Origin: Bacteroidales bacterium
GTDB taxonomy: Bacteria; Bacteroidota; Bacteroidia; Bacteroidales; Azobacteroidaceae
NCBI GenBank assembly: GCA_031553775.1
Contig: JAVBLA010000024.1
Span: 381-64,380 of the forward strand
Length of the DNA stretch: 64,000 nt
Direction: 5' to 3'
This document shows, in pieces, positions 22,176 through 62,386 of this stretch. The position numbers and the translations under genes are program-made. A model generated the notes under the pieces. It saw nothing but the letters and a program-made list of their open reading frames with translations, had not been told where the DNA came from and did no database searches. Each line of letters starts with the position of its first letter. Within the stretch, counting starts at the first letter, position 1.

Positions 22176-22376
22176 TTACGCCTTTTCAGCTTCTTCTATT
22201 TTTTCTTCCACTTCATCAGCGCAACAGGTTAGCTTACCTTTAAACTGAGAAACTTTATCTCCCAGAAGGTATAGCCATTGTTTTCTTTTTTCGGCATCAG
22301 TTCCTAAAATGTAACCTACACCTACTCCAACTAAGGCTCCTACGGCCAAACCACCTAAAAAATGACTTGTTTTCAT
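22176..22376 (-). CDS. YtxH-like small membrane-anchored protein
   Basis: ATG at 22376. Gly-rich N-terminal helix GGLAVGALVGVGVGYILG followed by a charged helix. Confidence 0.6.
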   Translation of the reverse strand: MKTSHFLGGLAVGALVGVGVGYILGTDAEKRKQWLYLLGDKVSQFKGKLTCCADEVEEKIEEAEKA

Positions 22377-22456
22377 ACGCAAAAAAATAAAAAATTAAAT
22401 GACCTGCATTTTACTAATAAACAAGTGACCCGATCAGGATGTTGTACAAAATAAGG

Positions 22457-24178
22457 TTAAAAACTATAATTATAGCCTACTGTTCCTACAGAAGCATGAT
22501 GGGTACCCTGTTCTGAATGAGAACGCCATTGAAAATTACAGGAAAGATTGATTGCATGTCGCATACACGGCCGGTAAACAGCATTGGCGCGAAACGAATA
22601 GACCTCCTGTTGCCTGGCTTTTGACAAATAGCTTGCATTATACGAAATATTATTTGAAATCTGGAGTTTTTTCCGGAAAAACTTATGCGAAGAACCGATT
22701 GCCGGCCCCCAGGTAATCATTTGTTTTCCGGAAATTCTGTTTTCATTCAGGTTCAGGCCGGCATGTAAACCGGATCCGGAAGCCAGAAATGCAAGAGTAT
22801 AAACAAATGCCGCATTGGTCCATCCGGAAACGCTTCCCGGATGATAAACACCTCCCTGTTTATCGGCAACATCCTGATAATTCAGGTTTATATTGAGATT
22901 CTGTTGTTGAGTCTCATTTTTACGCATGAGAATATTGAGGTTCAGGCCGGCAGAGCGGGATAGTTGGGCAAAACTGAGCGTATCCGGCCGGTCCAGTGTA
23001 TTGAGCCGGTTGATTTGCTCAAAATCGGAACGTACATGTGTAAATGTCTGGAAATTACTGAAAGATACGGAAGCTGAAACTTTTTCTCCGAAACCGGCAT
23101 TGATCTGGGCATTTCCGACCCAACGGGAAGTTGCATTCAATCTGTCATTTGCCAGGTTATCATGCTGGTAACCCATACTGAGAGCAATATTCAACCGGTT
23201 GGAAAGCAGGGATTGGGAAGCATTGACTGTGATATTTTCCAGATCATTGGCAAAATAATAGGCGCCTAAAGTCTGATAACCCGGATCTATCCGTTCATAC
23301 CCCAGTCCTATCATACTATGTGGCAGAACATAACTCAACTGTACCTGAACAGCATCAAAAACGGCTGATGACATTTTCGACGCCGGCCAGTATTTCAGAA
23401 TACCCGGAAGAGCATTTTCTCCCGGAGAACGAATATCATTTGTCCAAAGACTGAGGGCATATTCTGCCGTCAAGCGGATTTTTTCAATCGGGGAACATGT
23501 CAGTCGCAGACTCCCGGCCAGGTTCTGTACAGGTGTTATGCCTAAACTATCCGGTGGGTATTCTAAAGATCCGGGATCATCTTTGGCGGTAAATACATTC
23601 AGGGAAATATCGTTCTCTCTTTTTTTCCAGCCGACTTTAACTCCATATCCCATTCTTTCATAGGCAGGATACAAGAACGATTCTGTTTCATTATATTCCA
23701 CAGCTTTCTGCAAACGTCCGCACATTACACTAAAATTCCAGTTCGTACCGGGTGAAAGATCTACTCCCGCACCCGTAAACAAATGTCCATTCAGGGTATA
23801 TGGAGAAAATACCATGGAAATATCGCCGGCGTGTAGCCTGATCCATTTATAAGAAGGATGGATACTGAAGCGATTCGGCAGGGAAGGAAGTTTATAACTA
23901 TTACCTGAATTTGTGAGACTGAACATAAAAGGCATATTCATTATATTGCAGATATTCAGGTTAAGATTTCCATTGAAATAATAGGTGAACGGATCCCTTT
24001 CCCCGAGATCTCCCGAGCTTTCGTAACAGATCGCGCTGAGATTGAATCCTCCGTTGACTTTCAAAAGATTCCCCTTTCCGAACAAATTCCCAACTTTTTC
24101 CAGGTCAATACTTTGTGTATACGACATCAATATATTCATGCCAGTAAGCAAGAGCGATATTCCGGTCCGCCTAATCAT
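22457..24178 (-). CDS. predicted outer-membrane beta-barrel protein, unknown family (gene 6 of exported-protein operon)
   Basis: 573 aa. Hydrophobic N-terminus, pervasive alternating Y/F/L-polar strands with N/G/S turns, ends GYNYSF. Start overlaps the upstream stop by 8 nt. Confidence 0.6.
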   Translation of the reverse strand: MIRRTGISLLLTGMNILMSYTQSIDLEKVGNLFGKGNLLKVNGGFNLSAICYESSGDLGERDPFTYYFNGNLNLNICNIMNMPFMFSLTNSGNSYKLPSLPNRFSIHPSYKWIRLHAGDISMVFSPYTLNGHLFTGAGVDLSPGTNWNFSVMCGRLQKAVEYNETESFLYPAYERMGYGVKVGWKKRENDISLNVFTAKDDPGSLEYPPDSLGITPVQNLAGSLRLTCSPIEKIRLTAEYALSLWTNDIRSPGENALPGILKYWPASKMSSAVFDAVQVQLSYVLPHSMIGLGYERIDPGYQTLGAYYFANDLENITVNASQSLLSNRLNIALSMGYQHDNLANDRLNATSRWVGNAQINAGFGEKVSASVSFSNFQTFTHVRSDFEQINRLNTLDRPDTLSFAQLSRSAGLNLNILMRKNETQQQNLNINLNYQDVADKQGGVYHPGSVSGWTNAAFVYTLAFLASGSGLHAGLNLNENRISGKQMITWGPAIGSSHKFFRKKLQISNNISYNASYLSKARQQEVYSFRANAVYRPCMRHAINLSCNFQWRSHSEQGTHHASVGTVGYNYSF

Positions 24179-25499
24179 TTTTCTGTATTTTTATATCGGT
24201 TATTATATGAGAATTGAGAATTCCGGCATCTACCATCTCTTTGACCAGGATCACTCCTTTCCGCTTGTCGGCTGTATGGAACAGCACAATATCACCTTTA
24301 GTACAAACAGGATGAGAAATGGGTTCCCAAATGGTATTTTCCAATAAATAATCATCTTCCATCTCCAGAAAAGTCTCCGGGGTGATCTTATTTCCAACCT
24401 CTTTGTAAAAAACAGTATGAGAGGCATCCTGAATTGGCAGTAAAGGATAGAGTATACATGAATCCGGAGAAATAAATTTATTTAATGAGAAATTTTTATT
24501 CAGACCCAGGAATACAAGATCAATTTCTTTTCCGGAAGTATATGAAATTTCCGTTTGAGTAAATATTTTTCTTCGTTTTGTTGAATAGCAGCAACCTATT
24601 ATTTCTGAAGCCGTATTGATTCCAAAACAAACATTACGATGAATTCGTAGATTATGGTTCTGGCGGATCGTTATGTTTTGAGAAACCGTCCGGATTTGTT
24701 TTCCATTCCCGATATGCATATTTACCTGGTAGTTTCCCGGTAAATGAAAGAATATCTCTGTTTTTTCACAGGCAGGATTTGCCAACCGGGCACCGGAGCA
24801 ATCCCATGAAATGGTTTCTGTCCCCTGTAAATCAGCAATTAATTCAGCTGTCAGCGGAGCTTCATAATCCTCATCTTCCCAGGAAGGATAGATCCCGAAT
24901 GTACCTGCAAGTTCCGGCATTACGGTAATTTTGTCCGATATAGTAAATATTTTGCTACCGTTATCAATACGGAGTGATACCATGTGAACTCCTGCCTGCG
25001 GGAAAGTAATATCCGGAGGATGTTTCCCTGTAAACTTCGCAGGCTCTCCTCCCTCGAAGATCCATTCATAGGTAGTTCCTCCGGTAGAAAAGTTCGTGAA
25101 TTTCACTTCTGCCGGAGCGTAACAGTTGATTACCGGTTTCCAGTTAAAACCGGTTGTAACGGCACTATCTACCTGTATATACAAGGTTTTTGAAAGCCGG
25201 GAAGCATCGTTTGCCGCTTCCAGAACAATTGCATGTTTACCCGGAGTATCAAAACGGACTACCGGAGGATGTTTTCCTGTGAAAACCGAGGGGACTCCTC
25301 CTTCAAATCTCCAATGAAATTCCCGGGCATATTCCGAATGGTTCTCTATGGAGACATATAAGGGGGAAGTATGATTCCGGTCCTTTACATTCAGAGAGAT
25401 ATTGATCTCCACAGGAATAATCTGTTCCTCCGGCAGGCATCCTGCTCCACACCCGCCTATTACAATAAACAGCGTTCGAAGCAATAATTTACAGTTCAT
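24171..25499 (-). CDS. PKD-repeat lipoprotein (gene 5 of operon)
   Basis: MNCKLLLRTLFIVIGGCGAGC signal/lipobox. Repeats FHWRFEGGVPSVFTGKHPPVVRFDTPGKH and YEWIFEGGEPAKFTGKHPPDITFPQAGVH are PKD-like. Confidence 0.7.
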   Translation of the reverse strand: MNCKLLLRTLFIVIGGCGAGCLPEEQIIPVEINISLNVKDRNHTSPLYVSIENHSEYAREFHWRFEGGVPSVFTGKHPPVVRFDTPGKHAIVLEAANDASRLSKTLYIQVDSAVTTGFNWKPVINCYAPAEVKFTNFSTGGTTYEWIFEGGEPAKFTGKHPPDITFPQAGVHMVSLRIDNGSKIFTISDKITVMPELAGTFGIYPSWEDEDYEAPLTAELIADLQGTETISWDCSGARLANPACEKTEIFFHLPGNYQVNMHIGNGKQIRTVSQNITIRQNHNLRIHRNVCFGINTASEIIGCCYSTKRRKIFTQTEISYTSGKEIDLVFLGLNKNFSLNKFISPDSCILYPLLPIQDASHTVFYKEVGNKITPETFLEMEDDYLLENTIWEPISHPVCTKGDIVLFHTADKRKGVILVKEMVDAGILNSHIITDIKIQKND

Positions 25500-25514
25500 A
25501 CCATGTGGTTTTAA

Positions 25515-26288
25515 TTATCTGATATGCACATACTCAATAAAAGATACGGACTTATCTCCATAATCATCTTCATATTGAATTTCCACAGGGTATCCGGATT
25601 CGTTGTAGGTATATCCGGATGTTTCCCTATATGTGTAGGCATCATGGGTACTTGCCTTTACCAGTACATTATTTACCCGGTGCTGGTATTTATGCAGGAA
25701 TATGAAAAAAGTCCAGTCAGGCATATTGATCCGGCTGCAAATACCAGGGTGATTATCATACCGGTATGTATTGACATATAAACGATTCCGGAAGCTGATG
25801 GAATCTACGGAAATATTCCCTGCCGGATCGTATAAAAGACCGGTAACTTCTGTCTGATCGACTACCATCCGGAATAATCTCTCTTTGTTGTCTACAAAAA
25901 GACTGTCTTTCGGGTAAGTGTGGCCATCAGATCCTGTATATTCCTGCAATATCAGGTTTCCTTTATAGGTATAGCGGTATTTTTCTATCCATGTGTAGTT
26001 TCCCTGTATGGTTTGTTTCTCCACTTTATCTACCTTTCCGTCTTTATTGTAGGTAATAGATGTAATTGCTTTTCCCCCATAATAAACATATTCATAAACT
26101 ACGCAACGACTTTGCGTATCATAAACAAACGACTCTGTTTCAGATATACCGTTTCTGTCGCAGGTGATTTTTACCGGAAGAAAGATTCCGCAATTGTCTT
26201 CCGGATCATTATCTATACAAGAAGACAGAAAGACCGGTGCCATCAGGCAAATAATCGGCAAAGCCGACAAAAATTTCATTTTTTTCAT
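25515..26288 (-). CDS. hypothetical lipoprotein with Tyr-rich beta-hairpin repeats (gene 4 of operon)
   Basis: MKKMKFLSALPIICLMAPVFLSSC lipobox. YD/RHS-like short repeats (YEYVYYGGK, YNKDGKVDKV, YRYTYKGNL). Confidence 0.6.
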   Translation of the reverse strand: MKKMKFLSALPIICLMAPVFLSSCIDNDPEDNCGIFLPVKITCDRNGISETESFVYDTQSRCVVYEYVYYGGKAITSITYNKDGKVDKVEKQTIQGNYTWIEKYRYTYKGNLILQEYTGSDGHTYPKDSLFVDNKERLFRMVVDQTEVTGLLYDPAGNISVDSISFRNRLYVNTYRYDNHPGICSRINMPDWTFFIFLHKYQHRVNNVLVKASTHDAYTYRETSGYTYNESGYPVEIQYEDDYGDKSVSFIEYVHIR

Positions 26289-26353
26289 TTTTAAAATAAT
26301 TAATTGGTTAAATATTCAACAGGTGCTTATAAATCACTAAACTTATACATACA

Positions 26354-29300
26354 CTAATAAACTATTATTTTTGCCGGTATCTGTGCTGATAATGTTTCAA
26401 GTACCAACACATAGGTACCCGGTGCCAGGTAGATATGATAAGGAATGTTATAAATGTCCGAACCTTCTTTCTTGAGGTCCTGCAACACCCGGCCTGTTCC
26501 CGGATGGATCAATCGCAAACGGACCGGGGCTTCTTTTTCCAGTAAAATAGTGGCAGTAAACTGTCCCTGGTTAGGATTCGGACTGACTACATATTGTTTG
26601 ATCAATGGTTGAAAAAGGGGATCCCGGTTATAAAAATATTCCGGTTCCACAACAGTTAGTATTTTATAGCTTTCTTCATAGCACTGGCCGGTATAAGTGC
26701 GTCGTCCTACCATGAATTGTCCATTTTCAGAAATGATGATTTTCAGGATATGATTACCTTCTTCTACTATTTCCAGGGCAGGATCGGGGTTGTACAACCA
26801 CTCAGCCTGCTCCGGATCCGGATCGCTGATGTCTACCAGTACTATCGTATCATTCCTGAAAGTTGTGGATGAAACGATAAATTCTGAACGGACAATAGTT
26901 GATGGTAGCTGATAGACAGACAGTGTATCGCAGGCCCGGCAATTCCGGTTATCGGATATTTGCAGGATATATAAGCCTCTATCTGTCACTGTTATTTTTT
27001 CTCCGGTGGAAAAATACTTTCCGTCCTTAGTCCACAAGAAATCAATTGCATCACCTGTGATTTGCGGAAAAACGATCAGTGACTGACCGGCACATAAAGT
27101 TCGGTCTTCCCCTATATTCAGTTCTAAAGGTGGCGGGTCTTCCAGTATAAATTCCCGGAGAAGTACACAGCCATTCCGGTCCTTCACCTCCAGGTGATAT
27201 ATGCCGGCAGACAAGCCGGAAATACAGGGTGTTGTTTGTCCCGTATGCCATTGATATGTATAATCAGGCACACCTCCGGAAAGATCGACTGCAATACTTC
27301 CATCTTCCGATCGATGGCATACCGGCTGTTCCACACTATATTGTAACTTCATCTGTTCCGGGGAATCTACATGGACTGTCGTTTCCCTGAAACAACCACG
27401 GGCATCACTTACTTTAACCCAATAAGTACCGATTCCGGCTCGGAACAAAGTATCTCCGATCTCACCTGTATTCCATTCAAACAGATAAGGAGTTGTTCCA
27501 CCGGAGGCTGTTACATGTATTTTTTCCGAATGACCATCACTACAACTTATCACAGCATGAGAAGGTACAGGCACAATCTCATCCGGTTGTTCCAGATGAA
27601 AAATCCCGGTTGTATCCACATTGTTATTTTTGTCACTTACAATCAGGAAATAATCGCCTGCGGACAGTTGATCCCAAATGCTGTCATTCGGTTCTAGCCG
27701 GTCTTTTACTTCATTTCCGTCGAGTTCTTTCCAGCGATACCTGTAGGGAAGGCCATTCTCAAAGGGAATGCCCCCTTGTACACGGGCAGATAGCTCTCCG
27801 TCTTTCCATCCGTGACAACTAACCACATGGGTTTCTTCTATGGTGGTAAGCAGAGGTTCAGGTTCAACGAGAATGAATGTATCCCGTAAAATACATCCTT
27901 GCCTATCGGAAAAATAAGCACTGGAGTAATTACGGTCGGTAACTTCCATTGTATAGATGCCCTGTCCCAGAGCAGGTAAAAAGCTGTAAAATTCCCGATC
28001 TGCAGCAAAACTGTGGTAAGATTTTCCGCTGAGATCTTCTCCCGATTCATTCTTCCAGACCACATCATAAAAACCAGCTGTATCCACGGTTCCTCCGCCA
28101 ATAGAGACTTCCAATGAGCCGTCTTTTCTAGCATATCCCAGGGGATGGATGACAGAGCAGTCTATTTTGTGGATGGCCTGTTCCGGTTGCGATATCATGA
28201 TTTCACCCAACACCTTATTTCCTTTGATATCTTTTTCGAAGCAACCATTTCCATCGGTTAGATAAAACAAATATTCTCCGGCCGGAAGCCGGTCTATTTT
28301 ACATACGGAATCTTCCGGTAATTGAAAACGAATGGTTTCAAACTCAGGATCTGCGATCTCTGCCCAATGAATGGAATAGTTTTTCACTCCGCCCCAGGCA
28401 CTGATGGAAAATGCACCATCCATTCCACCGAAACAATGCACATCCCGAAGAATATTTGCATTAAAAGTTACCGGTAGCGGACTTTGAATCAAAGCTTTTA
28501 CCTGATGCCTTGCCGATCCGCTGTAAGTTGTTTTTTGCCGGTAAAAACCGGCAACCCGGATATCGTATAATCCCGGGGAAAGATTAGTGATCACAACAGA
28601 ATCTGCGGCATAGGGATATTCATAATATAACACTTTGTGATTATAATATACTTCCATCTTTTCTTCTGCTATCAGAGAACGGTCGAAATAAACGATCAAC
28701 TGTCCGTTTTCTTCATCATGACACTTGTTGGGAAGCACTTTCACTGTTTTAATAAAAGGAGATGCATAACGTTCACTCAAAGTAATAATATTAGAATAAT
28801 CCATTTCCTTAACGGTTTTCAGGGTTTGATACTTCAACCGGATCATTGTTTGAGAATTGGTTTGCTTCAGGCGGGATTCTGCCAATCCGGCACCATAAAT
28901 ATCCACTGCAGAAAAACGGATTACCGAATCGCCCTGAAAAGCTTGCGGGAGTAAGCTCCAGGTAATTCCGTTATCCCCGGAATACTCCCAGAGATACACA
29001 TCCCTGTGATACCCTGATGGAGCGGCAACTCTAATCTGTTCATCGAAGGGAAGCAGCCGGCTTTCATCTCCCCGGTAAGCAATCCGGATATCTTTCGGAT
29101 AAATGACAATATCGAGGTAACCATACCAGATTTTATACAATCTCCTGTGGGGAGCATATGATTCGCAGGAAGAATCATCACAATAAGAAATCTGCTGGTA
29201 ATTGATTGGTTCATTAACACTCTGTATAGACTGATAGATCCATTCTCCATCATCATTAGATGCATTTTTCAGGCCATATTTGCTGTACATATTGATTCCC

Positions 29301-29578
29301 GTTAACCGTTGTTGCATGTTGTATGTTTTGGTTACGCTCCAATATATCCAGTTATTTTTGTCTGTTCCGTATAAATCGTAATCCAATACTACCTCACCAT
29401 AATAATCATCGTTGATGTGGTGAAGAATAACCAGCTTACTACCATCTCTTGCTGTCCTGCTCTCATAGTGCACCATTCCCCCGGAAAGTCTGACGCCCCA
29501 TTCTCCCGACTGGGAATATACAGTAGCAGTACAAATAAAAAACAGAATAACGCATTTTATTTTTTCCATTTCATTCAT
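26354..29578 (-). CDS. SprB-repeat cell-surface protein with type A T9SS C-terminal sorting domain (gene 3 of operon)
   Basis: At least four C-x-G/D-x-DG ... GG..PY.Y.W repeats, e.g. VSCHGWKDGELSARVQGG...YRYRW and QPVCHRSEDGSIAVDLSGGVPDYTYQW. C-terminus VSPNPNQGQFTATILL...GTYVLVLETL...AKIIVY. Confidence 0.8.
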   Translation of the reverse strand: MNEMEKIKCVILFFICTATVYSQSGEWGVRLSGGMVHYESRTARDGSKLVILHHINDDYYGEVVLDYDLYGTDKNNWIYWSVTKTYNMQQRLTGINMYSKYGLKNASNDDGEWIYQSIQSVNEPINYQQISYCDDSSCESYAPHRRLYKIWYGYLDIVIYPKDIRIAYRGDESRLLPFDEQIRVAAPSGYHRDVYLWEYSGDNGITWSLLPQAFQGDSVIRFSAVDIYGAGLAESRLKQTNSQTMIRLKYQTLKTVKEMDYSNIITLSERYASPFIKTVKVLPNKCHDEENGQLIVYFDRSLIAEEKMEVYYNHKVLYYEYPYAADSVVITNLSPGLYDIRVAGFYRQKTTYSGSARHQVKALIQSPLPVTFNANILRDVHCFGGMDGAFSISAWGGVKNYSIHWAEIADPEFETIRFQLPEDSVCKIDRLPAGEYLFYLTDGNGCFEKDIKGNKVLGEIMISQPEQAIHKIDCSVIHPLGYARKDGSLEVSIGGGTVDTAGFYDVVWKNESGEDLSGKSYHSFAADREFYSFLPALGQGIYTMEVTDRNYSSAYFSDRQGCILRDTFILVEPEPLLTTIEETHVVSCHGWKDGELSARVQGGIPFENGLPYRYRWKELDGNEVKDRLEPNDSIWDQLSAGDYFLIVSDKNNNVDTTGIFHLEQPDEIVPVPSHAVISCSDGHSEKIHVTASGGTTPYLFEWNTGEIGDTLFRAGIGTYWVKVSDARGCFRETTVHVDSPEQMKLQYSVEQPVCHRSEDGSIAVDLSGGVPDYTYQWHTGQTTPCISGLSAGIYHLEVKDRNGCVLLREFILEDPPPLELNIGEDRTLCAGQSLIVFPQITGDAIDFLWTKDGKYFSTGEKITVTDRGLYILQISDNRNCRACDTLSVYQLPSTIVRSEFIVSSTTFRNDTIVLVDISDPDPEQAEWLYNPDPALEIVEEGNHILKIIISENGQFMVGRRTYTGQCYEESYKILTVVEPEYFYNRDPLFQPLIKQYVVSPNPNQGQFTATILLEKEAPVRLRLIHPGTGRVLQDLKKEGSDIYNIPYHIYLAPGTYVLVLETLSAQIPAKIIVY

Positions 29579-31676
29579 ATTTAAGGGTTAAACTTTGTGG
29601 TTTACAGGAACGTTTATCTTTTGTCAACAGAATGATATCATATCGATAAGTGCTTGCCGGATAAAGGTCTTCATCCAGTATTTTAGTTATATCTGCAGAT
29701 AATTCTTTCCATAAAAAACCCGGTTTTCCCTGCACAGACTTATAAATACGAAAAGCAACCGCTTCCGGATGGCGTTGCCAGGCCAGCTCTATGTATCCGT
29801 TTTTCCTATCGGCATAGGCTGTGAAATTGTTCACCTTCAGTATTGTTTTAGAGATTTGCACACATATATTCATCTCCGTAGGAGAAGAGGATATATTATT
29901 GGCTGGATCTATTGCCAGTACACGGTATTCATAACAACCTGAACGAGGTAGTCTATCCGTATGAGATTGTTGCTTCTTATCTCCGATAAACACAGTCACC
30001 GGATCGAGCATACTTCCGGATTCTTTCCGGAGCAAATAATAGGTTGCCTGGTCGGTTTCATCTGTTATCCAGGAAATTGTTACTTGTCCCTCCTCTCCTA
30101 TCTTATAGTCTGTAAAAACAGGTTCTGCCGGAGGAATTTTATCGGGCTTCAAGGCTAAAAAAACGGGAGAAAGATTCGACTCATTATAACGGAAATCAAC
30201 AGAAGAAACGGCATAATATACCTTTTGATTGATGGTTTTCAATGACAAGGTATCCATATATTCATGTTTTGTCAGGATTTGAGGGGTGAGTACAGACATT
30301 TCATCACCCTCCGTAAAAGAGCGGAATACCCGGTAACCTCTCAGGTCATTCTCATGGTTGGGGCTCCAGGATAAATGAGCAATTCCTATGGTGTCTATTT
30401 GTACTAATAAATTTTCAGGAATCATTGGAGGGATGGAATCGATCTGTCGAACCAGGAAAGGCAGTGATATTCTTTTTTCTCCCCGGATGGTATGGGCAGT
30501 AAGCACCCAATAATCGCTTTCCCGGGTCACCGGAAAAGTCCACTCCCTGGCATCCGGTGATATGTATGCAACAATAGGGGAATCGATGTCCTGTAATTCT
30601 TCTCTGCCCTCTATACTGAATGAGACTACTTCTTCCGGGGATTCACAAGTCAGTTTCCAGGAAAGGTTTACCTGATTCCGGCCTATAAATTCCCCTGAAA
30701 TTATTTCCGGCATACAGATTTCCGCGGGCATCCCTACTCCTTTTACGGATTTGGAAGGAGGTCCTTCCCTTCCAAAAGAGTCGATGCCCCGGATCCTGTA
30801 AATATAAACGGTTTGGTTATCCTCCAAAGAATCGGTAAAAAATATTTCCTGCATAGAAGTGAGGGCGGTAAGTGGCAATTCCGTTATCCGGAAAAAACGT
30901 TCCTCCGGTATGGTTTCCGATATGTTCTCAGCTTCATCTACGGAAAAGGCAGCTCTTTCCACATGATAGGAATGGTATTCTCCTGATAATGTTCCGTAAT
31001 TCCAGATCAGTAAAACTGACCGGTTCCCAAAAACAGCTTCAGGAGGCATCGGTTGAGAAAAAGATTTCCGCAAAGCGGTTTCTATCCATACAACAGCGGT
31101 ATCTGCAGATGTTCGCCGGGGCTTATTGATAAATACCCGGTACAAATAGCTGCAACTATCGGATATTTGTTGATCCTCCCACCCCCAACCGGCCAGTAAA
31201 GCTGCCTGGAAATCATATTCCGCCATGAATACCAATGTCAGAAAACGCTGTTGAAGTTCTTCTGCCCGGTTGATTATTCTGGCAATCCCCTTTGACTGAT
31301 TTCCTTCCAGACTGAAACGTTCTCCATACAGAGCCTGTGCGATTACGGCTGCATAATCGGATTGCCGGATATAATCTGTCCATTTCTCCGGTTTTGCAGG
31401 GAATAAAACACTTCCTGCAGGGAGTTCTTTAGACGGATAATCATGCCATCCGGATGTATCTTTCACCACATATTTTTCCAGAACATATCCGTATTTTTTT
31501 CCATCCAGCCAGGAGAGTTCATCTACTGGTGCCCAACGAATTAAAATACTGCTTTCGGTTACACAAGCCTTTATTTTCAGATGAGCATCCGGTTCTGCAT
31601 GTATTTCTGTTGCATAGGTATTTACAACAAAAGTCGTCCATAGCAGGCTGATTAAATGGTGGGGGGTGAAGGTCAT
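29571..31676 (-). CDS. fibronectin type III repeat protein, secreted (gene 2 of operon)
   Basis: N-terminal hydrophobic segment. Several FN3-like units (LSWSPNHENDLRGYRVFRS, VTISWITDE..YYLLRK, IELAWQRHPEAVAFRIYKS). Confidence 0.65.
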   Translation of the reverse strand: MTFTPHHLISLLWTTFVVNTYATEIHAEPDAHLKIKACVTESSILIRWAPVDELSWLDGKKYGYVLEKYVVKDTSGWHDYPSKELPAGSVLFPAKPEKWTDYIRQSDYAAVIAQALYGERFSLEGNQSKGIARIINRAEELQQRFLTLVFMAEYDFQAALLAGWGWEDQQISDSCSYLYRVFINKPRRTSADTAVVWIETALRKSFSQPMPPEAVFGNRSVLLIWNYGTLSGEYHSYHVERAAFSVDEAENISETIPEERFFRITELPLTALTSMQEIFFTDSLEDNQTVYIYRIRGIDSFGREGPPSKSVKGVGMPAEICMPEIISGEFIGRNQVNLSWKLTCESPEEVVSFSIEGREELQDIDSPIVAYISPDAREWTFPVTRESDYWVLTAHTIRGEKRISLPFLVRQIDSIPPMIPENLLVQIDTIGIAHLSWSPNHENDLRGYRVFRSFTEGDEMSVLTPQILTKHEYMDTLSLKTINQKVYYAVSSVDFRYNESNLSPVFLALKPDKIPPAEPVFTDYKIGEEGQVTISWITDETDQATYYLLRKESGSMLDPVTVFIGDKKQQSHTDRLPRSGCYEYRVLAIDPANNISSSPTEMNICVQISKTILKVNNFTAYADRKNGYIELAWQRHPEAVAFRIYKSVQGKPGFLWKELSADITKILDEDLYPASTYRYDIILLTKDKRSCKPQSLTLKYE

Positions 31677-31772
31677 AATTGAAAAATTAAAAATTGAGAA
31701 TCGTTAGATCGGCCTTAGCCAGTTGAAAATTAGTTATGGTGATTTTTGATTGAAAATGATATTTGTTTTGGT
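31677..31772. repeat. intergenic AATTGAR-type repeat, family B
   Basis: AATTGAAAAATTAAAAATTGAGAAT ... AGTTGAAAATTAG ... ATTGAAAATGATATTT. The last 16-mer (31749..31764) is identical to 55345..55360. Confidence 0.55.
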
Positions 31773-34700
31773 TTATTCTCTCCAGTCGATCGGATTATGG
31801 TAATCCAGGTCTTTTGTTGTTCCGGGCTGACCTCCCGGCAAAACATAGCTGAATCTGACAACATAAGATCCTTTGGGAATAAATGGGAAATAGCTGTCAA
31901 TGAGAAATTTCCATTGGGCAAGGTATCCCGTATGCAGGAAGCTATTGATTACCTGAGTTTTCAGATCGTGATAATCCTGCTGATAATATAGCGGCAGGGA
32001 ATAAATGTAAGGCCATGTATGTAGAAACTCCGGTTGATATATTCCTGAAGAAACGGCATACAGGTAGCCATCCAGTAACGGAACAGCCCTGACAGGTGGG
32101 ACTCCCAGCACATCCGGCAAACGGTTCCGGATCGTAATACCGGGATACGGATACCAATCATAAATCAAAGGTTTGATATCTTTCAGGAAGTAGGCATCGT
32201 TGAGTAGTGCTTCCGCCTGTACCAATGGCAATCCGGCAGTATGGACCGTACCAGTGAGTTCTGCCTGATCCAATAATTCGGATGTGGTTTCTGTTTGCAG
32301 CAACAGCGAGCGGATATCCGAATTGACATACCTGGTTGTTCCCGTTAATTGCATATCACTCAATTTTTCCTCAAAAGTAGCATAACGGGAGCTTTCAAAG
32401 CGGTAGTTTAATAACTCCATGGAACCGGACTGGCTGATCCTTTGTGCCATTTTCTGCTTGAATAATAATTCGTAATCTGCTCCATTTTCCTGATCTTCCA
32501 GCACAATTTTCTGAGCTACAATATGATCCTCATCAATTGTTTCCTCCGGACTTTCTGCTCCTTGTTCCTCGTCCATCGATTCATTTTCATCTTCCCCGTC
32601 CCACTCGGAAGCAGCTGCCAGGCGAAGGTAATACCGGGATTCTCTTCCCATTTTTTCAGGAAAGGAAAAAGTAATCCGGGCCTGGGCTTCATCGTAGGTA
32701 AAAGAGCTTGGAACTGTTTTAACTCCCTGTCTCGTACATTTAGCCTGATACACAAATCCTTCCGGGAAAAGATAGCGCTGTCCTTTTTTCAACTGGATGT
32801 AACCGGTAGCCGATTCATTCTGATAAAAATTCTTCTGATCTACTACCGGATAACAATAGGCAATATTTGTAAGCGGAATACGATCGGGTGCATTTCCTGT
32901 TTTGAAAGATACTTTTTTGGTTTCCACAGCATCTTTTCCGCTTTGACGCACCACTTGCCAATTTCCGTTTGCATATTCTTCGAATCTCACCGATACGGAA
33001 GCAAACCATTGTGTTTTAGGCGACAGGATCTCTTTGGAGATAAAAGTTGCTTCGTCTTTTTTAGTATTCCAACGGATGTTTCCTTCCACCAATTGTCCGG
33101 AGGCATTTTTAACCACAAACTCTGCCAATTGAATCCGGTATGTTCTGGTACCGGATTCATCATCCAGGTTGAATGCTTTACCGACAGGCATGCTGAATGT
33201 AGCCTGAGGAGAGGTAAATACATCCACTTCTCCCGATTGATTGGGACTGAGGTCGCTGATCATCGGCATCTCCACCGGAGAATATTCTCCATCTGCCCGA
33301 ACAATTTTACAATCGTCACCCAGGCTTATTTTCATACGCATCCGTCCTTCCAGCAGACCTCCCAGTATATTGACCTCCACTGCCATATAGCCTCCAAACC
33401 AGGTTGGATTGGGTAGTTTTGCCTGTAACAAAGCAGCTGTAGCTCCCCGGATGACCGGTATCGTTTTTTTTAATCCCAGGATTTTGATATTCACTCCCAG
33501 TTCGCCGAGCAAAGCAGCATAACATTGTCCATTGGCATACCAGCCGTCTATCCCTATTTTTTCATTTTTTCCTTCGCAGTAATAATCGCTGTAATCTTTA
33601 AGCATCAAATCAAAACCCAACTCAGATGCAAAACGGGCATAGAGGATCAGGAAATTCATATTTCCGGTATCAAAAGAGAGGTTAGAGCCAAAGGCAAATC
33701 CTTTTCCAAGTCCTATCTGATCGAGATCCTTAGTATATCCGACTTCTTCGGCAGAAAGACCAAGTATTTGGGTGACCAATGCCGGAGGTGCAGGAGAAAC
33801 CGGAATATCGTCACCAATCATCAGGTATGAACCTGACTGCACTGAGAATTTTCCGAAGCCGACCTGCAATCCGATAGGATGTGCCGGTGTTCCTGCATGT
33901 ATATACCATTTTCCGGGAGAAATATGCAGGCAGGCGGCACCGGCAGCATCGCCGGCACCTGTACCATGGATTAATCCACCGGCCACATTTACACTCAGGC
34001 TGAAATTGGCATCAAAACTTCGGGTTGGAAAATCGTATTCCATGGTCAGGTATGCCGTAATACCGTCTTTTTTCTTTTTGGCAGGATACACCATCTGAGC
34101 GATTTCCGATCCGCTCAATCCTTTGGGTAAGCGGGAACTTAGGGATTCACTCATATCGTTGAAATTTTGGGCAGCCTGTGTATAGAGTTCACGGACATTG
34201 TCGAAGACTTCGACGCGATCCATCAGTTTTAGCTGTCCGTAAAAACGGGTTTTACCAATACCTCCTCCATTCAGGAAACAAACTTCAAAAAGAGCATTGC
34301 CATTGGCAATTTTCTTGTCCGCTACGGAAAAAGACATTCCGGCACGGATACCCAAACCACATTTTTCATCCGGAACATATGTCGTCTTTCCCAAAGGATC
34401 TCCTTTTGCCCTGACTTTATAATAAGCTCCTCCGCAAAAACCGTTAATTGATAAAGGTCCGACAGGAATTCCGGGAAATCCGGCATCTCCTTCTACAAAC
34501 CAATACCGGAGACTATCTTTACAGCCGAAATGAGCACTGGCTTTCAATTTCAGTTCATCCGACAAGATGTTAAAGCGAGCCTCCAACGAACCACCTATAT
34601 AATCTCCGTACTCCTTGTCGTCTTCTTCCAACAAAAGACTTCCACTCAACGTAAAACCTTGCAAAGCAATGCTGTCCAGTATGATCTTATCAAGATCAAA

Positions 34701-36242
34701 ACCCTTATATTTCCAATGTTTATCGGCATATTCAGCAGAAAAACCAAATGTAGAACGGGCCGATATTTTATTTTTCATCAGAAGAATTTTCACATCGAAA
34801 TCCAGATTTGCTTTTTTACCGGATGCCTTTAAAGAAATATTTTCAATAGAAAGAGGAAAATGGGCTAAACGGAGATCGCCCTCACAGTCCAGGGACTCCA
34901 CGCTCAGGTAAGGAGATTCAGTAGAAACGGTTAATTTTTTGAAGATAAATTTTTCCAAATGAAGCGCTTTGCCTGCAGAGATTTGCATGTAACCATTCAT
35001 CACGAGACTGGGTTTGAATGTTTGATCTTCCACCAGCATTTGCACATACGATGTTTTTTCTAAATAGACATCGGCCGTACCAAACATATCAATGGACAAT
35101 TTTTCACCCAGGTTTACTTTGAAGAGATACTTTCCTCCCTGTTCAATCAATGCGCTGTAACGCAATGTTTTGATTTTTTCCGTCAAAGGAATTCCCAATT
35201 CTCCGCCAAATCCGAAGCCGGTAATTTTGTTTGCAGTTAAAAACAGTTCCAGATCCGTTACTGAAAAAGCCCATCCGTTTGCATCTCCCTTTTCCAATGG
35301 CAAGACGTCTAAAGCAGAAACACCTCCACTGAGTCCATTCTCGTCTATCAACAGATTTTCACCCTCCAACGCTATGCGTTCGGAAGAGTCTTTTATTTTG
35401 AACTCCGGAGGAAGAACAAGAGAGAATTTATCGATAAAGACGCCTCGCCATTGATTTTTATCAGGATAAGAACAATAGTCTCTGAAATAATTTTTAGGAG
35501 CTGAAAAGGCAGCCGGATTTTCATAGTCACTCAGGTCCAGGGTCGCTTTTTTCACCTCGAAAGTAAAACCTTCCAGGGATTTAATTTCAAAAGGAGCCAG
35601 GGATATTTCAACCAGAAAATGATTCCAATTTTCAATCTCAGCCTTAAAAGAAGAAGTAAGAGTCTTCGGTTCATTTTTACCTGATCCAGCCGGAACAAAA
35701 ATACCCGGATTCATTTCCAGTTCCATCCCGAGGGATAATTTTTTAAATTCCGCATTACAATCAAGGCTCAGGAATGTTTCGGAATTTCCTCTTCCGGTTT
35801 TATCATCTAAAGAACCTTTGATAATCAGGTTTCCCATTTCTCCAAGAGGGATGGTAACATTGCTCAATAATGCCAGTTTGATATCTCCGATCAGATTTCC
35901 ATCAAAAGATATTTGTATGTTTTCGGCACCAAAAACCAGTATGCGCGATTGCTGGGGAACTTCCACCTTAACCAATACGGTAGCTTCTGCATATTCGGGA
36001 TAGAAACGCATATTGGTTATGGCCACTGTAGCAGGCACATTGGCAATCATCTTCCGCATACCCAAAGGAAAGACCGCCGGTTTGTTCAGATCGATATCTT
36101 CTACAAAATTTTTGATCTTTTCAATGAAGGCAAATTTAGACATTGCCCATTCAAGGGAAAATTCAAACGACTGGCTATGACCGTGTAACGGGCAACAAAG
36201 AAAGGCCAGAATCAGGCATAACAGAGAAAAGGTCCGGTTCAT
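31773..36242 (-). CDS. 1489-aa secreted protein with no recognisable domain (gene 1 of operon)
   Basis: ATG at 36242 gives MNRTFSLLCLILAFLCCPLHGHSQ (signal peptide). Uninterrupted ORF, beta-rich composition. I recognise no family signature. Confidence 0.75.
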   Translation of the reverse strand: MNRTFSLLCLILAFLCCPLHGHSQSFEFSLEWAMSKFAFIEKIKNFVEDIDLNKPAVFPLGMRKMIANVPATVAITNMRFYPEYAEATVLVKVEVPQQSRILVFGAENIQISFDGNLIGDIKLALLSNVTIPLGEMGNLIIKGSLDDKTGRGNSETFLSLDCNAEFKKLSLGMELEMNPGIFVPAGSGKNEPKTLTSSFKAEIENWNHFLVEISLAPFEIKSLEGFTFEVKKATLDLSDYENPAAFSAPKNYFRDYCSYPDKNQWRGVFIDKFSLVLPPEFKIKDSSERIALEGENLLIDENGLSGGVSALDVLPLEKGDANGWAFSVTDLELFLTANKITGFGFGGELGIPLTEKIKTLRYSALIEQGGKYLFKVNLGEKLSIDMFGTADVYLEKTSYVQMLVEDQTFKPSLVMNGYMQISAGKALHLEKFIFKKLTVSTESPYLSVESLDCEGDLRLAHFPLSIENISLKASGKKANLDFDVKILLMKNKISARSTFGFSAEYADKHWKYKGFDLDKIILDSIALQGFTLSGSLLLEEDDKEYGDYIGGSLEARFNILSDELKLKASAHFGCKDSLRYWFVEGDAGFPGIPVGPLSINGFCGGAYYKVRAKGDPLGKTTYVPDEKCGLGIRAGMSFSVADKKIANGNALFEVCFLNGGGIGKTRFYGQLKLMDRVEVFDNVRELYTQAAQNFNDMSESLSSRLPKGLSGSEIAQMVYPAKKKKDGITAYLTMEYDFPTRSFDANFSLSVNVAGGLIHGTGAGDAAGAACLHISPGKWYIHAGTPAHPIGLQVGFGKFSVQSGSYLMIGDDIPVSPAPPALVTQILGLSAEEVGYTKDLDQIGLGKGFAFGSNLSFDTGNMNFLILYARFASELGFDLMLKDYSDYYCEGKNEKIGIDGWYANGQCYAALLGELGVNIKILGLKKTIPVIRGATAALLQAKLPNPTWFGGYMAVEVNILGGLLEGRMRMKISLGDDCKIVRADGEYSPVEMPMISDLSPNQSGEVDVFTSPQATFSMPVGKAFNLDDESGTRTYRIQLAEFVVKNASGQLVEGNIRWNTKKDEATFISKEILSPKTQWFASVSVRFEEYANGNWQVVRQSGKDAVETKKVSFKTGNAPDRIPLTNIAYCYPVVDQKNFYQNESATGYIQLKKGQRYLFPEGFVYQAKCTRQGVKTVPSSFTYDEAQARITFSFPEKMGRESRYYLRLAAASEWDGEDENESMDEEQGAESPEETIDEDHIVAQKIVLEDQENGADYELLFKQKMAQRISQSGSMELLNYRFESSRYATFEEKLSDMQLTGTTRYVNSDIRSLLLQTETTSELLDQAELTGTVHTAGLPLVQAEALLNDAYFLKDIKPLIYDWYPYPGITIRNRLPDVLGVPPVRAVPLLDGYLYAVSSGIYQPEFLHTWPYIYSLPLYYQQDYHDLKTQVINSFLHTGYLAQWKFLIDSYFPFIPKGSYVVRFSYVLPGGQPGTTKDLDYHNPIDWRE

Positions 36243-36388
36243 AGATGGTTTTGCTAATGCATACAAAGTCCTGTGAGAACATTGCACACAACGGTTAATG
36301 CATTTTGGTTAAACAATCTGATGTTTATGTGATTTATTTTTCAGAGGAAAGAAAATAAAATTCACATAGCCAGGTTTTGTTTCTGAGG

Positions 36389-36396
36389 CAAAGGTA
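36389..36396 (-). promoter_or_regulatory. putative -7 box (TACCTTTG on minus strand) for the six-gene operon
   Basis: Only TAnnTTTG match between 36243 and the REP-like palindrome; 146 nt upstream of the ATG. Confidence 0.4.
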
Positions 36397-36487
36397 AATG
36401 AATATTTAGAAAAGCAAAATAAATTAAAGAAATTTAACTAAAAATCAATTTTTAATACTAAAGGGAGTCATCAAAATATAAAAAAAA

Positions 36488-36563
36488 CGTCATTGCGAGG
36501 AGAAACAAAGCAATCTCCTGATAATTCCGGCAGATTGCTTCAGGCTTCGCCTTCGCAATGACG
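36488..36563. repeat. REP-like nested palindrome
   Basis: Outer arms CGTCATTGCGAGG / CTTCGCAATGACG (13 bp, one G:U); inner arms AAGCAATCT / AGATTGCTT (9 bp). Sits after the stop of 36637..37158. Confidence 0.7.
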
Positions 36564-38265: not shown

Positions 38266-39566
38266 AAAAAAAAATCCAGGATTTCAATATCGGGTACTGG
38301 TTGCTGAAGGGATATGTAAGATTTGCCATCCGCCAGTTTTATAGTGGAATTAAAATTTCCGGAATGGAAAATATTCCCCGGAATAAATCCGTTATTTTTG
38401 CACCCAACCATCAGAATGCACTGATGGATCCCCTGTTATTGCTTTATTCCCGACCCGGGAGGACCGTATTTATGGCCCGTGCCGATATTTTTAAAAAGAA
38501 AACGGTAGCCAATATCCTATATTTTCTAAAAATCCTTCCTATTTACCGTATCCGCGACGGTGTAGACGAATTAGATAAAAACTATGCCATTTTCGAACAG
38601 GCAGCAGGTGTATTACGCGATGATGTGCCGCTTTGCCTGATGCCCGAGGGGAAACAGAGTTTCCAACGAAAATTACTTCCGTTAGTGAAAGGTATGTTCC
38701 GCATAGCGTTCAAGGCACAGGAAGAAATGCCCGGTAAAGAAATCGTCATTATTCCTACGGGTATCGATTATGAAGATTATGTCCATTCCGGAACTCAGGT
38801 AGTTATTCGTTTCGGCAAACCGATAGAAATACGGGAGTATATGCCGCTTTACCGGGAAAACCTGCCGAAAGCCATGAATATCCTGAGGGATGACGTTTCC
38901 CAGGCAATTAGCACTCTTATACAGGATATCCGGTCGGATACACATTATGAAGATTTTTATCAGCTATCGCTCATCGGAGATGAATCTGTTTGCCGGTTGA
39001 ATCAAAAGGAAGAAACGCCTTTACATTTGCTGCAGGCCCGGCAGGAAATTGCCCGGGAGTTAGATACTCTGGAATCTTCGGATCCTGAAAAAGCTGATAA
39101 ACTTTGTGAAGCCTGCCGCCAATATATGTCAGTATTAAAGAAACTCCGCGTCAGGGACAAGGAAATACAATCGCCTCCTTCATTGATCTTGTTGATTGTT
39201 CAACTGACCGGGTTAATTACGGGATTACCTTTTTTTATCACCGGATGGATTGCCAATGGTATTCCGGCATATACACCCCGGTTAATCACCCGCAAACTCA
39301 AGACCGATGATTTCAGAAGTTCCTTCACCTTTGTCCTCTGGCTGGTTTTCTACTTAGTTTATTATCTGATCCTTTTTATTACGGCAGGATTTGTAACCGG
39401 CTGGATAGAGTCATTGGGAATAATTGTATGCTCCGCACTCTGTGGAAAATTTGCTTACCTGTATCTCGGATGGATGAAAGATTTCGGTCATAAACTCCGT
39501 TACTTATTTGCCGGAACAGAGAAGTATTCCATTCACCCGCCACGAATAGCGGATTTTCTTCGTTAA
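38262..39566 (+). CDS. PlsC-type lysophospholipid acyltransferase with C-terminal membrane domain
   Basis: ATG at 38262 overlaps the upstream TGA (ATGA). Acyltransferase blocks FAPNHQNALMDP, FMARADIF and LMPEG. C-terminal hydrophobic helices. Confidence 0.72.
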   Translation: MKKKIQDFNIGYWLLKGYVRFAIRQFYSGIKISGMENIPRNKSVIFAPNHQNALMDPLLLLYSRPGRTVFMARADIFKKKTVANILYFLKILPIYRIRDGVDELDKNYAIFEQAAGVLRDDVPLCLMPEGKQSFQRKLLPLVKGMFRIAFKAQEEMPGKEIVIIPTGIDYEDYVHSGTQVVIRFGKPIEIREYMPLYRENLPKAMNILRDDVSQAISTLIQDIRSDTHYEDFYQLSLIGDESVCRLNQKEETPLHLLQARQEIARELDTLESSDPEKADKLCEACRQYMSVLKKLRVRDKEIQSPPSLILLIVQLTGLITGLPFFITGWIANGIPAYTPRLITRKLKTDDFRSSFTFVLWLVFYLVYYLILFITAGFVTGWIESLGIIVCSALCGKFAYLYLGWMKDFGHKLRYLFAGTEKYSIHPPRIADFLR

Positions 39567-40765
39567 AAAGTTTCAGCAATATCGATATATAAACCGGAAG
39601 AGTTTTTACCGATCGCATAATCTACCGATATATTCGTACGGGAGAATTTGTTCAGTTTGATCCGAAGTCCCACCCCTCCCGCAGGATCGAGGTAATCGAA
39701 CAGTTTTACCGTATGATCGGGAGCAGAAACGGTAGTTGCATTACCGAATAGCACAGCCCCCAATAAATCATTATTTGTTAAACCTACACGGTACTCCAGT
39801 TGTCCGAATAGCAATTTATCTCCTCTGAAACGGCCAATGGTATAGCCATAAGAAGATTTACCCATGAGATCATATCCTGTGGCCGGCAGATTCATATAAG
39901 GTACCTCTCCGTCTAATATCATGGACGCATTAGCCCAGAATGCCAACCGGTGACGGTGGTTCTGTGTTAAACTTTTGAAAGCCCGGAATTCCAGCCAAAG
40001 ATGCTGCCAGGCCTGGTCCGATCCCATAATTTTCAACAAAGAAGAATAAACAGCCCGGGCGTTGATACCGCTATAGGCATTGATAATATTATCGCGGGTA
40101 TCGAATAAAGCAGAGATATTATATCCTGCCGCTATAGATTTCGTCGGGTCTATTCCCCTGGATGAATTGTATTGGAAATAAGGATCACTTGCCGATTCGG
40201 CATAGCCGGTAATATCGTAATACCGGTTATAATTGACTCCTCCCCCCACATACAAAGTAGGTAAGATACCATACATCAGCGATATGTTGGTACGGATAGT
40301 ACTGAAATCGAGTTGTTCTTTGGCTTCTTTAGGAGTGCCGCTTCCCAAACCGTAAGTATTTTCGTTATTGTTATTGTAACGAATATCAAAATCGGCCGCC
40401 CATTTATTCCTTGAAAAATAAGTCAGATCACGCAAATAGAAAAACAATTGCTTTTTGGTGGTGTAGGCCAGTGATATGGTTCCTGCTGATTTTTTGGTAT
40501 CAGGGTGATTGCCGATCCGGTAATGGGCATTGGTCACAGCCCCGAATTTCACTCCTGCCGAAGGGCTGGAAGCCACATAAGGCAGGGCTCCGAATTCTTT
40601 TTTCCGCTCTTTGCGGCCGGTTTTTTTCTCATTTTCTTTTTTTTCTCCGAAGATAATACCCATCAAATCTTTCAGTTGTGTGCTGTCTGCTTCCTGCGCC
40701 TGAAGAAAAGATGGCAGAAAAATATTGACCAGAAAAAAAAGGACCGGAACAAAATGTTTTTTCAT
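39563..40765 (-). CDS. Omp85-family (bacterial surface antigen D15) beta-barrel without POTRA domains
   Basis: ATG at 40765, signal peptide ...LQAQ. DTRDNIINAYSG and GGVGLRIKL...DYAIG...YIDIAETF match the Omp85 barrel C-terminal pattern. Confidence 0.7.
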   Translation of the reverse strand: MKKHFVPVLFFLVNIFLPSFLQAQEADSTQLKDLMGIIFGEKKENEKKTGRKERKKEFGALPYVASSPSAGVKFGAVTNAHYRIGNHPDTKKSAGTISLAYTTKKQLFFYLRDLTYFSRNKWAADFDIRYNNNNENTYGLGSGTPKEAKEQLDFSTIRTNISLMYGILPTLYVGGGVNYNRYYDITGYAESASDPYFQYNSSRGIDPTKSIAAGYNISALFDTRDNIINAYSGINARAVYSSLLKIMGSDQAWQHLWLEFRAFKSLTQNHRHRLAFWANASMILDGEVPYMNLPATGYDLMGKSSYGYTIGRFRGDKLLFGQLEYRVGLTNNDLLGAVLFGNATTVSAPDHTVKLFDYLDPAGGVGLRIKLNKFSRTNISVDYAIGKNSSGLYIDIAETF

Positions 40766-62375: not shown

Positions 62376-62386
62376 ATTTAAAAATC

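Follow-up and report, generated by a model that had tools for sequence, protein, structure and literature searches.

The subject of this analysis is a cluster of six collinear genes on the minus strand of a 64,000-nucleotide (nt) stretch of a Bacteroidales genome from the family Azobacteroidaceae (GenBank assembly GCA_031553775.1, contig JAVBLA010000024.1, positions 381 to 64,380; this whole stretch is hereafter referred to as the window). The genes, denoted G1 to G6, encode a very large protein (hereafter, the giant), an FN3 protein, a SprB-repeat protein, a lipoprotein, a PKD lipoprotein and an outer membrane (OM) beta-barrel (Table 1). As described below, five of these genes, all except G4, form a set that is conserved across the phylum and that, in many genomes, is encoded together with a polymorphic toxin of the TANFOR family. 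All six open reading frames (ORFs) are present in the sequence, and both 8-nt start/stop overlaps can be read directly: ATGAATGA at the G2/G3 junction (29571-29578) and ATGATTAG at the G5/G6 junction (24171-24178), where the stop of G5 lies over the start of G6. The remaining intergenic gaps are 96, 65 and 15 nt. Sec or lipoprotein signals were recognized on all six products, and Pfam and NCBIfam scans detected no enzyme, ATPase or regulator domain among them, in full agreement with the original prediction, made from the nucleotide sequence alone, of an operon that encodes exclusively exported proteins. Counted from its ATG, G1 agrees with the recorded gene call P0001 of the NCBI and Logan sources. 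Housekeeping genes flank the cluster.

Table 1. Genes and transcription signals of the six-gene cluster, in window coordinates
Feature	Position	Strand	Description
G1, giant	31773-36242	-	1489 amino acids (aa) counted from ATG; alternative GTG start at 36287
G2, FN3 protein	29571-31676	-	701 aa
G3, SprB-repeat protein	26354-29578	-	1074 aa
G4, lipoprotein	25515-26288	-	257 aa
G5, PKD lipoprotein	24171-25499	-	442 aa
G6, OM barrel	22457-24178	-	573 aa
TAnnTTTG box TACCTTTG	36389-36396	-	fits the -7 promoter box of Bacteroidota and lies 147 nt upstream of the ATG of G1
Intrinsic-terminator-like element	36480-36563	-	extended hairpin at 36488-36563, then U8 at 36480-36487

The one TAnnTTTG box reported previously upstream of the cluster is indeed there, and TACCTTTG is the sole intergenic minus-strand match of the cluster; across the window, this motif is hardly enriched (72 matches vs 60 expected), so that the box, taken alone, is a weak datum. 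A sigma-70 promoter scan, which is uninformative for Bacteroidota, found 38 sites vs 35 expected. The hairpin farther upstream has a folding energy of -41.6 kcal/mol (z -6.3; none of the 200 shuffled sequences folded into an equally stable RNA) and, together with the U8 tract, makes up a terminator-like element that ends the upstream gene, which encodes a 173-aa protein, and insulates the cluster. Because no minus-strand terminator-like site was found within the three intergenic gaps of the cluster, and such an element is located upstream, a single transcription unit encompassing all six genes is plausible.

Among the products of the cluster, G3 contains SprB repeats (PF13573, E 1e-26) and a type A C-terminal domain (CTD) of a type IX secretion system (T9SS) that matches TIGR04183 with 30.5 bits, against a cutoff of 23, and is also present in all 9 of the 9 complete G3 orthologs tested. 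Thus, the original annotation of G3 as a SprB-repeat protein with a type A sorting domain stands and, given this CTD, G3 is a predicted T9SS cargo. The FN3 domains of G2 are sub-threshold when the single sequence is searched and become clear with a family profile which, when compared with the PDB, matches the FN3 arrays of titin and RPTP and delineates four to five FN3 domains at residues ~215-690, confirming G2 as an FN3-repeat protein; the N-terminal domain of ~200 aa has no match. For G5, both the PKD assignment (PF00801, E 9e-12) and the lipoprotein assignment, with a Cys17 that is invariant in the family alignment, were corroborated. A profile search against the PDB resolves three PKD domains in this protein (residues 31-107, 123-190 and 212-281), and the C-terminal domain of ~160 aa has no match.

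The identification of G6 as an OM beta-barrel is borne out by an AlphaFold2 (AF2) model in which the protein forms a barrel of ~26 strands (pLDDT 80.8, pTM 0.65) and has the C-terminus ...YNYSF. The best Foldseek match of this model is MtrB (6r2q_B, E 5e-9, TM 0.56/0.50), followed by LptD, SlpA, ushers and SprA; the similarity to SprA is a generic large-barrel fold match only (TM 0.30/0.11). Neither a Pfam or NCBIfam match nor a plug or TonB-dependent receptor domain was detected in G6, and a profile of its family produced 0 matches to PDB sequences. The family comprises more than 1100 homologs, none with a Pfam domain. Located 75-80 nt downstream of G6 is an ORF (22176-22382, minus strand) for a protein of 66-68 aa (MKTSHFLGGLAVGALVGVGVGYILG...) with one hydrophobic segment and no Pfam match.

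G1 is an all-beta protein with a Sec signal peptide, for which, in line with its description as a protein without a recognizable domain, the Pfam and NCBIfam scans were empty, as was the comparison of an 18-sequence family profile with PDB sequences. An AF2 model of residues 26-1010 contains ~60 long strands (pLDDT 76.5, pTM 0.45), and its Foldseek matches in the PDB include LptD, Deinococcus SlpA, ApoB100, porins and ushers, with E-values down to 2e-7 and TM of 0.10-0.18. The modeled local geometry resembles that of OM barrels or beta-sheets, and no family can be assigned on this basis. We do not count G1 among the relatives of LptD: the matches are of the generic large-barrel or beta-sheet kind, with TM of just 0.10-0.18. 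Profile-profile comparison revealed no relation between G1 and G6, the 50 best fold matches of G1 did not include TamB, and comparison of the fold with viral structures yielded nothing meaningful (TM <0.13).

G4 has a good lipobox (FLSSC), so the 257-aa product was correctly described as a lipoprotein. No family match was found for G4 in Pfam or NCBIfam, a search of 5.8 billion clusters returned only G4 itself, and no homolog was detected in the 87 related loci analyzed below. By these searches, G4 is an ORFan that lies outside the conserved module. The protein contains YxY/G-rich hairpin-like repeats, and the lipidated Cys is immediately followed by an acidic stretch (CIDNDPEDN) reminiscent of a Bacteroidota surface-export signal.

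Relatives of the giant are widespread. The closest ones, from Dysgonomonas and Tannerellaceae, share 44-46% identity with G1; an exhaustive phmmer search places 2159 representative clusters in the family; and a scan of species-representative genomes detected giant relatives in at least 538 stretches from Flavobacteriia, Chitinophagia, Cytophagia, Sphingobacteriia and Bacteroidia. A word-indexed search returned 23 giant homologs, and their contexts already showed the giant, FN3 and SprB genes in series. We fetched loci that carry giant relatives (denoted by L-numbers), with 10-kb flanks that cut many of these loci. When all ORFs of 87 such loci were clustered, only six recurrent families emerged, namely, the giant (87 loci), the FN3 protein (79), the SprB-like protein (75), the PKD protein (32), the barrel (28) and the TANFOR family F3. 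The counts for PKD and the barrel are minima because long SprB genes push these two genes past the 10-kb flank. The FN3 gene, a nearly constant downstream neighbor of the giant gene, adjoins it in 75 loci, with a median gap of 1 nt (75 pairs), and the median gaps between the other gene pairs of the set are 3-28 nt. Because this juxtaposition is conserved in at least 80 loci, it is not due to chance. The gene order varies by lineage: Niastella and Chitinophaga have G5-G6-G1-G2-G3, Aquimarina and Tenacibaculum have barrel-toxin-x-G1-G2-G3, and the closest relatives of the window copy have giant-FN3-SprB-TANFOR. In several cases, the module is present twice in the same genome (L029/L033; L022/L044; L020/L030). 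Thus, the co-occurrence of the giant, FN3 and barrel genes extends far beyond close relatives, and G1, G2, G3, G5 and G6, but not G4, comprise a set conserved across the phylum. The distant loci L005 and L009 retain the giant and FN3 genes, with the barrel gene also kept in L009, and have neither a SprB nor a TANFOR gene, which argues for a putative core of giant, FN3 protein and barrel, to which the adhesin and the toxin are add-ons.

Several variations on this theme were observed. In the Flavobacterium loci L054, L055, L059, L062, L063 and L076, and in L039, L050, L053 and L071 from Tenacibaculum and relatives, the FN3 gene is separated from the large SprB-like gene by two to five tandem ORFs, which are 390-630 aa long and fall into the SprB-repeat family upon clustering. 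In Aquimarina and Tenacibaculum, the barrel gene directly precedes the TANFOR gene, with no separate PKD lipoprotein gene in the fetched sequence; the barrel homologs in L061, L067, L081, L087, L088 and L090 from these genera are at least 716-816 aa long, given that most of the ORFs are cut at the locus start, and possess a non-barrel C-terminal tail. Dysgonomonas sp. 520 (L011) encodes a close PKD-barrel pair, 44% identical to G5 and 54% identical to G6, which is followed by six unrelated, unannotated genes for proteins of 152-1154 aa rather than by the giant-FN3-SprB series; as judged by this locus, the pair can combine with other partners. Directly upstream of the module in Niastella (L010:5096-7996) are genes for a TPR/histidine-kinase protein and a LytTR response regulator, possibly, a dedicated regulator that is absent from the window.

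The family F3 connects the set to toxins. It is present in 45 of the 86 related loci, a count that is not proof of toxin absence elsewhere, with only two of the 86 loci (L005 and L009) reaching more than 2.5 kb past the module on both sides. F3 proteins are 1400-2200 aa long, with a signal peptide and an fn3 domain near residue 290, and their N-termini match the TANFOR model TIGR02542 over its full length (E 6e-7 and 3e-8). The C-termini are variable, with a TNT NAD-glycohydrolase domain at the end of the protein in L004, EndoU in L067, and a common CRCPHCY tail in L081 and L088, and the small unrelated ORFs downstream of the F3 genes occupy the position expected of immunity genes. This predicted architecture is that of a polymorphic toxin. 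The body of the F3 proteins is conserved and, preceding the variable end, ~850 residues into the protein, contains an invariant HELGHGxFGLEH...MDY zincin-like motif (L067:3013-9117, L081:2442-9014, L090:2477-7297 and others), which could belong to a self-processing or release protease; one F3 member has a weak archaemetzincin match. In L004, a PTL_trimer protein and two L-type-lectin-like proteins are encoded upstream of the module (L004:471-4731).

TANFOR toxins were defined by Jana, Salomon and Bosis (2020, Life Sci Alliance, PMC7073777), who found SprB repeats in 173 of 339 TANFOR neighborhoods, compared with 8 of 678 controls, and reported that Fn3 (COG3401), PKD and the type A CTD were likewise enriched beside TANFOR genes. 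The correspondence with our loci is direct: two F3 genes are base-exact with entries in the catalog of Jana et al. (PMC7073777), namely, those of L078 (WP_081203147.1, Niastella yeongjuensis, NZ_FOCZ01000005.1 57352-63066) and L090 (WP_035086125.1, Aquimarina latercula, NZ_KE387185.1 560305-565125). The former locus carries homologs of G1, G2, G3, G5 and G6, with 31-44% identity to the window genes, and the latter, homologs of G1, G2, G3 and G6, so the window genes are orthologous to neighbors of cataloged TANFOR genes. The SprB/type A CTD, Fn3 and PKD classes that adjoin TANFOR genes are represented in the window by G3, G2 and G5, respectively. The window differs in that it lacks a TANFOR gene and an immunity-like gene, and the orphan G4 follows the SprB gene, in the slot where the closest relatives have the TANFOR toxin gene. 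By predicted domain content, the cluster shows every neighborhood feature of a TANFOR locus save the toxin itself. The earlier statement that the cluster matches no named system thus holds for curated models and has to be abandoned with respect to the TANFOR neighborhood gene set (PMC7073777).

Altogether, the probable interpretation, which we hold with modest confidence, is that the window carries a toxin-less version of a phylum-wide envelope set that in other genomes is accompanied by the gene for a TANFOR polymorphic toxin. Presentation or export of an interbacterial toxin is preferred over a purely adhesive function because the TANFOR gene lies inside the cluster in about half of the fetched loci. 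Several observations weigh against this interpretation. No TANFOR homolog was detected in the 64-kb window, either by tblastn with 42 family members or with an N-terminal hidden Markov model, and therefore, the toxin link is made only through the orthology of the neighbors; similarly, the proposed link of the proteins themselves to toxin export is drawn from gene neighborhoods. The F3 matches to TIGR02542 are below the curated cutoff, and the small ORFs downstream of F3 have no family match, so that their role in immunity is putative. Furthermore, L005 and L009, which are distant, fully covered loci, also lack the toxin as well as the SprB gene, suggesting that the core may have a toxin-independent job. 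The fold matches of G1 are weak (TM 0.10-0.18, pTM 0.45), which makes its location and role guesses. Finally, the T9SS itself is the route favored for TANFOR toxins by Jana et al. (PMC7073777), speculatively; the same article states the export route to be unknown.

How such an apparatus might function can be outlined as follows. G3 would be exported by the T9SS and fixed at the surface as a SprB-type fibril that contacts cells or surfaces. G5 and G6 would associate in the OM as a barrel and its lipoprotein partner, in the manner of LptD-LptE or MtrB-MtrC, with the PKD domains exposed on the surface, as suggested only by the translational coupling of the two genes and by the fold class of G6. 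The barrels of MtrB and LptD enclose or hold a partner protein. G6 belongs to the same size class (~26 strands), with MtrB as its best structural match (in the MtrB-MtrA/C complex, 6r2q), and its gene is coupled to a lipoprotein gene much as the function of lptD is coupled to LptE; by analogy, G5 may be the partner of G6. The fold resemblance does not go beyond the number of strands: the sequence of G6 is not similar to that of these barrels, and there are no cytochromes, no LptE, and no match to the N-terminal jellyroll/OstA domain of LptD. G1 and G2, whose genes usually abut or overlap, could form a second envelope complex. In the toxin-bearing loci, the conserved TANFOR N-terminus would dock on this apparatus, and the toxin would then cross the OM or be displayed on it beside the adhesin, with the zincin motif perhaps effecting its release. 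In the window, the apparatus would either act on a toxin whose gene is at another site of the genome or function as a bare adhesion structure. A stronger version of this scheme, in which G1, G2, G6 and G5 make up a previously unrecognized OM export or presentation machine that carries the CTD-less TANFOR toxins and the T9SS supplies only the SprB-type fibril, is doubtful, and we put it forward as a tentative suggestion. In that case, toxin-less copies like that in the window would mark the machine as an autonomous, modular unit.

The original prediction described the genes accurately and proposed a dedicated surface structure or adhesin module, an idea that is right in part. The part of it that survives is that of a tightly packed, conserved set of genes for exported proteins; the context points to toxin presentation or export rather than to adhesion alone, and the 257-aa lipoprotein is not a conserved part. 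In its strict form, this proposal implies a stand-alone adhesin or fibril module, in which the SprB-repeat protein is the end product, the other proteins anchor or assemble it, and the TANFOR toxins found elsewhere are opportunistic passengers of the same islands. We regard such a module as a possible, if somewhat unlikely, alternative. The absence of a toxin from the window copy, L005 and L009 fits with it, and SprB repeats, FN3 and PKD are all classic modules for adhesion or spacing; in addition, the toxin gene is less constant than the trio of G1, G2 and G3. Yet L005 and L009 keep the giant and FN3 genes, and L009 the barrel gene too, without a SprB gene, so that the core does not exist solely for the adhesin, and in Aquimarina and Tenacibaculum, the operon itself includes the toxin gene, with the barrel gene on one side of it and the giant gene on the other. 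Moreover, the attachment complex PorU/PorV normally anchors cargo that has a type A CTD, so that no dedicated barrel is required.

A more specific version of adhesion, a variant of the sprCDBF (or remFG-sprCDBF) gliding operon of Flavobacterium with G3 as the mobile adhesin and the remaining proteins as SprC/SprD/SprF-like accessories, appears very unlikely. The two systems do share a T9SS-dependent surface protein with SprB repeats that is encoded with exported accessories, and sprB of F. johnsoniae is co-transcribed with envelope accessory genes. However, SprB carries a type B CTD, whereas the CTD is of type A in G3 and in all its tested orthologs, and no PorP/SprF-family barrel match was found in the six proteins. 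The accessories encoded in the window are different and much larger; the argument against their identity with SprC and SprD is an indirect one, SprD being apparently SprF/PorP-like, since SprD and SprF both match S. grandis SGRA_0444. Besides, the module is found in genomes and metagenome-assembled genomes of Dysgonomonas, Prevotellaceae and Tannerellaceae, which are taken as non-gliding. The least credible of the alternatives is a nutrient-capture surface complex composed of a non-Sus barrel and polymer-binding surface lipoproteins. A barrel encoded with a surface lipoprotein resembles the SusC/D-like arrangement, some glycan-binding proteins contain PKD and FN3 domains, and an alginate/uronate utilization locus is 4 kb away, but Pfam and NCBIfam searches of the six proteins detected no Plug, TonB_dep_Rec or SusD match of the kind expected of a Sus-like polysaccharide utilization locus, and a real SusC/D pair was detected in the same window at 59142-63883. 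Furthermore, no hydrolase or lyase is present in the cluster or among the recurrent families of the 87 loci, where the recurrent extra gene encodes a toxin, not a polymer-degrading enzyme.

Other named systems can be set apart in the same manner. The six proteins showed no match at E <= 0.1 to the core and attachment components of the T9SS (SprA/Sov, PorV, PorP, PorU, PorZ, GldJKLMN), no Omp85/POTRA or DUF490/AsmA match of the Bam/Tam/AsmA type, and no match to the pilin families of type V pili (FimA/Mfa), either in the two lipoproteins or in the other four proteins. For a T6SSiii membrane complex, which was also considered, the evidence is indirect: the six families listed above are the only recurrent ones in the 87 loci. 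CdiB-CdiA two-partner secretion (contact-dependent inhibition) is comparable in that, in the related loci, a polymorphic toxin that is large, Sec-dependent and variable at its C-terminus is encoded beside an OM barrel and followed by small ORFs. The differences are that the barrel is not of the Omp85/POTRA type, the toxin body consists of TANFOR, fn3 and the zincin motif rather than FHA repeats, and the related loci contain four extra conserved envelope genes and T9SS cargo. Thus, the Pfam and NCBIfam searches placed neither the giant nor the barrel nor the 257-aa lipoprotein in a characterized family of a known machine, and the conservation reaches far beyond close relatives, so that the original prediction was not refuted on these counts.

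The cluster is therefore a real, conserved and uncharacterized envelope module, one that is not without precedent. What appears to be new here is the recognition of the giant and barrel families as members of a fixed five-gene set: the domains published as enriched in TANFOR neighborhoods belong to this one envelope set, two large members of which, the giant and the barrel, were invisible to domain searches. In the parts of the article by Jana et al. (PMC7073777) considered here, the account is one of domain enrichment, with no mention of these two families, and no later paper on a TANFOR-associated apparatus was found in the literature searched. The export route of TANFOR toxins has been an open question since 2020, and the five-gene set makes it directly testable and suggests that a new OM machine may be involved. 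As a natural toxin-less variant, the window copy can be useful for asking what the apparatus does alone.

Beyond the cluster, a 400-aa protein of the Omp85 superfamily (E 2e-6) is encoded on the minus strand at 39563-40765, 3.3 kb upstream; this gene is outside the cluster, with two plus-strand genes in between. It is followed by a uronate/alginate-type polysaccharide utilization region (40849-63883), which encodes two chondroitinase-B-like lyases (in one of them, a T9SS CTD is matched below the threshold) and a Big_5/DUF5018 protein bearing a T9SS CTD, along with an alginate-lyase/heparinase II/III protein, an MFS transporter, an SDR, an esterase and a SusC/SusD pair. The predicted CTD proteins of this region indicate that the organism uses the T9SS.

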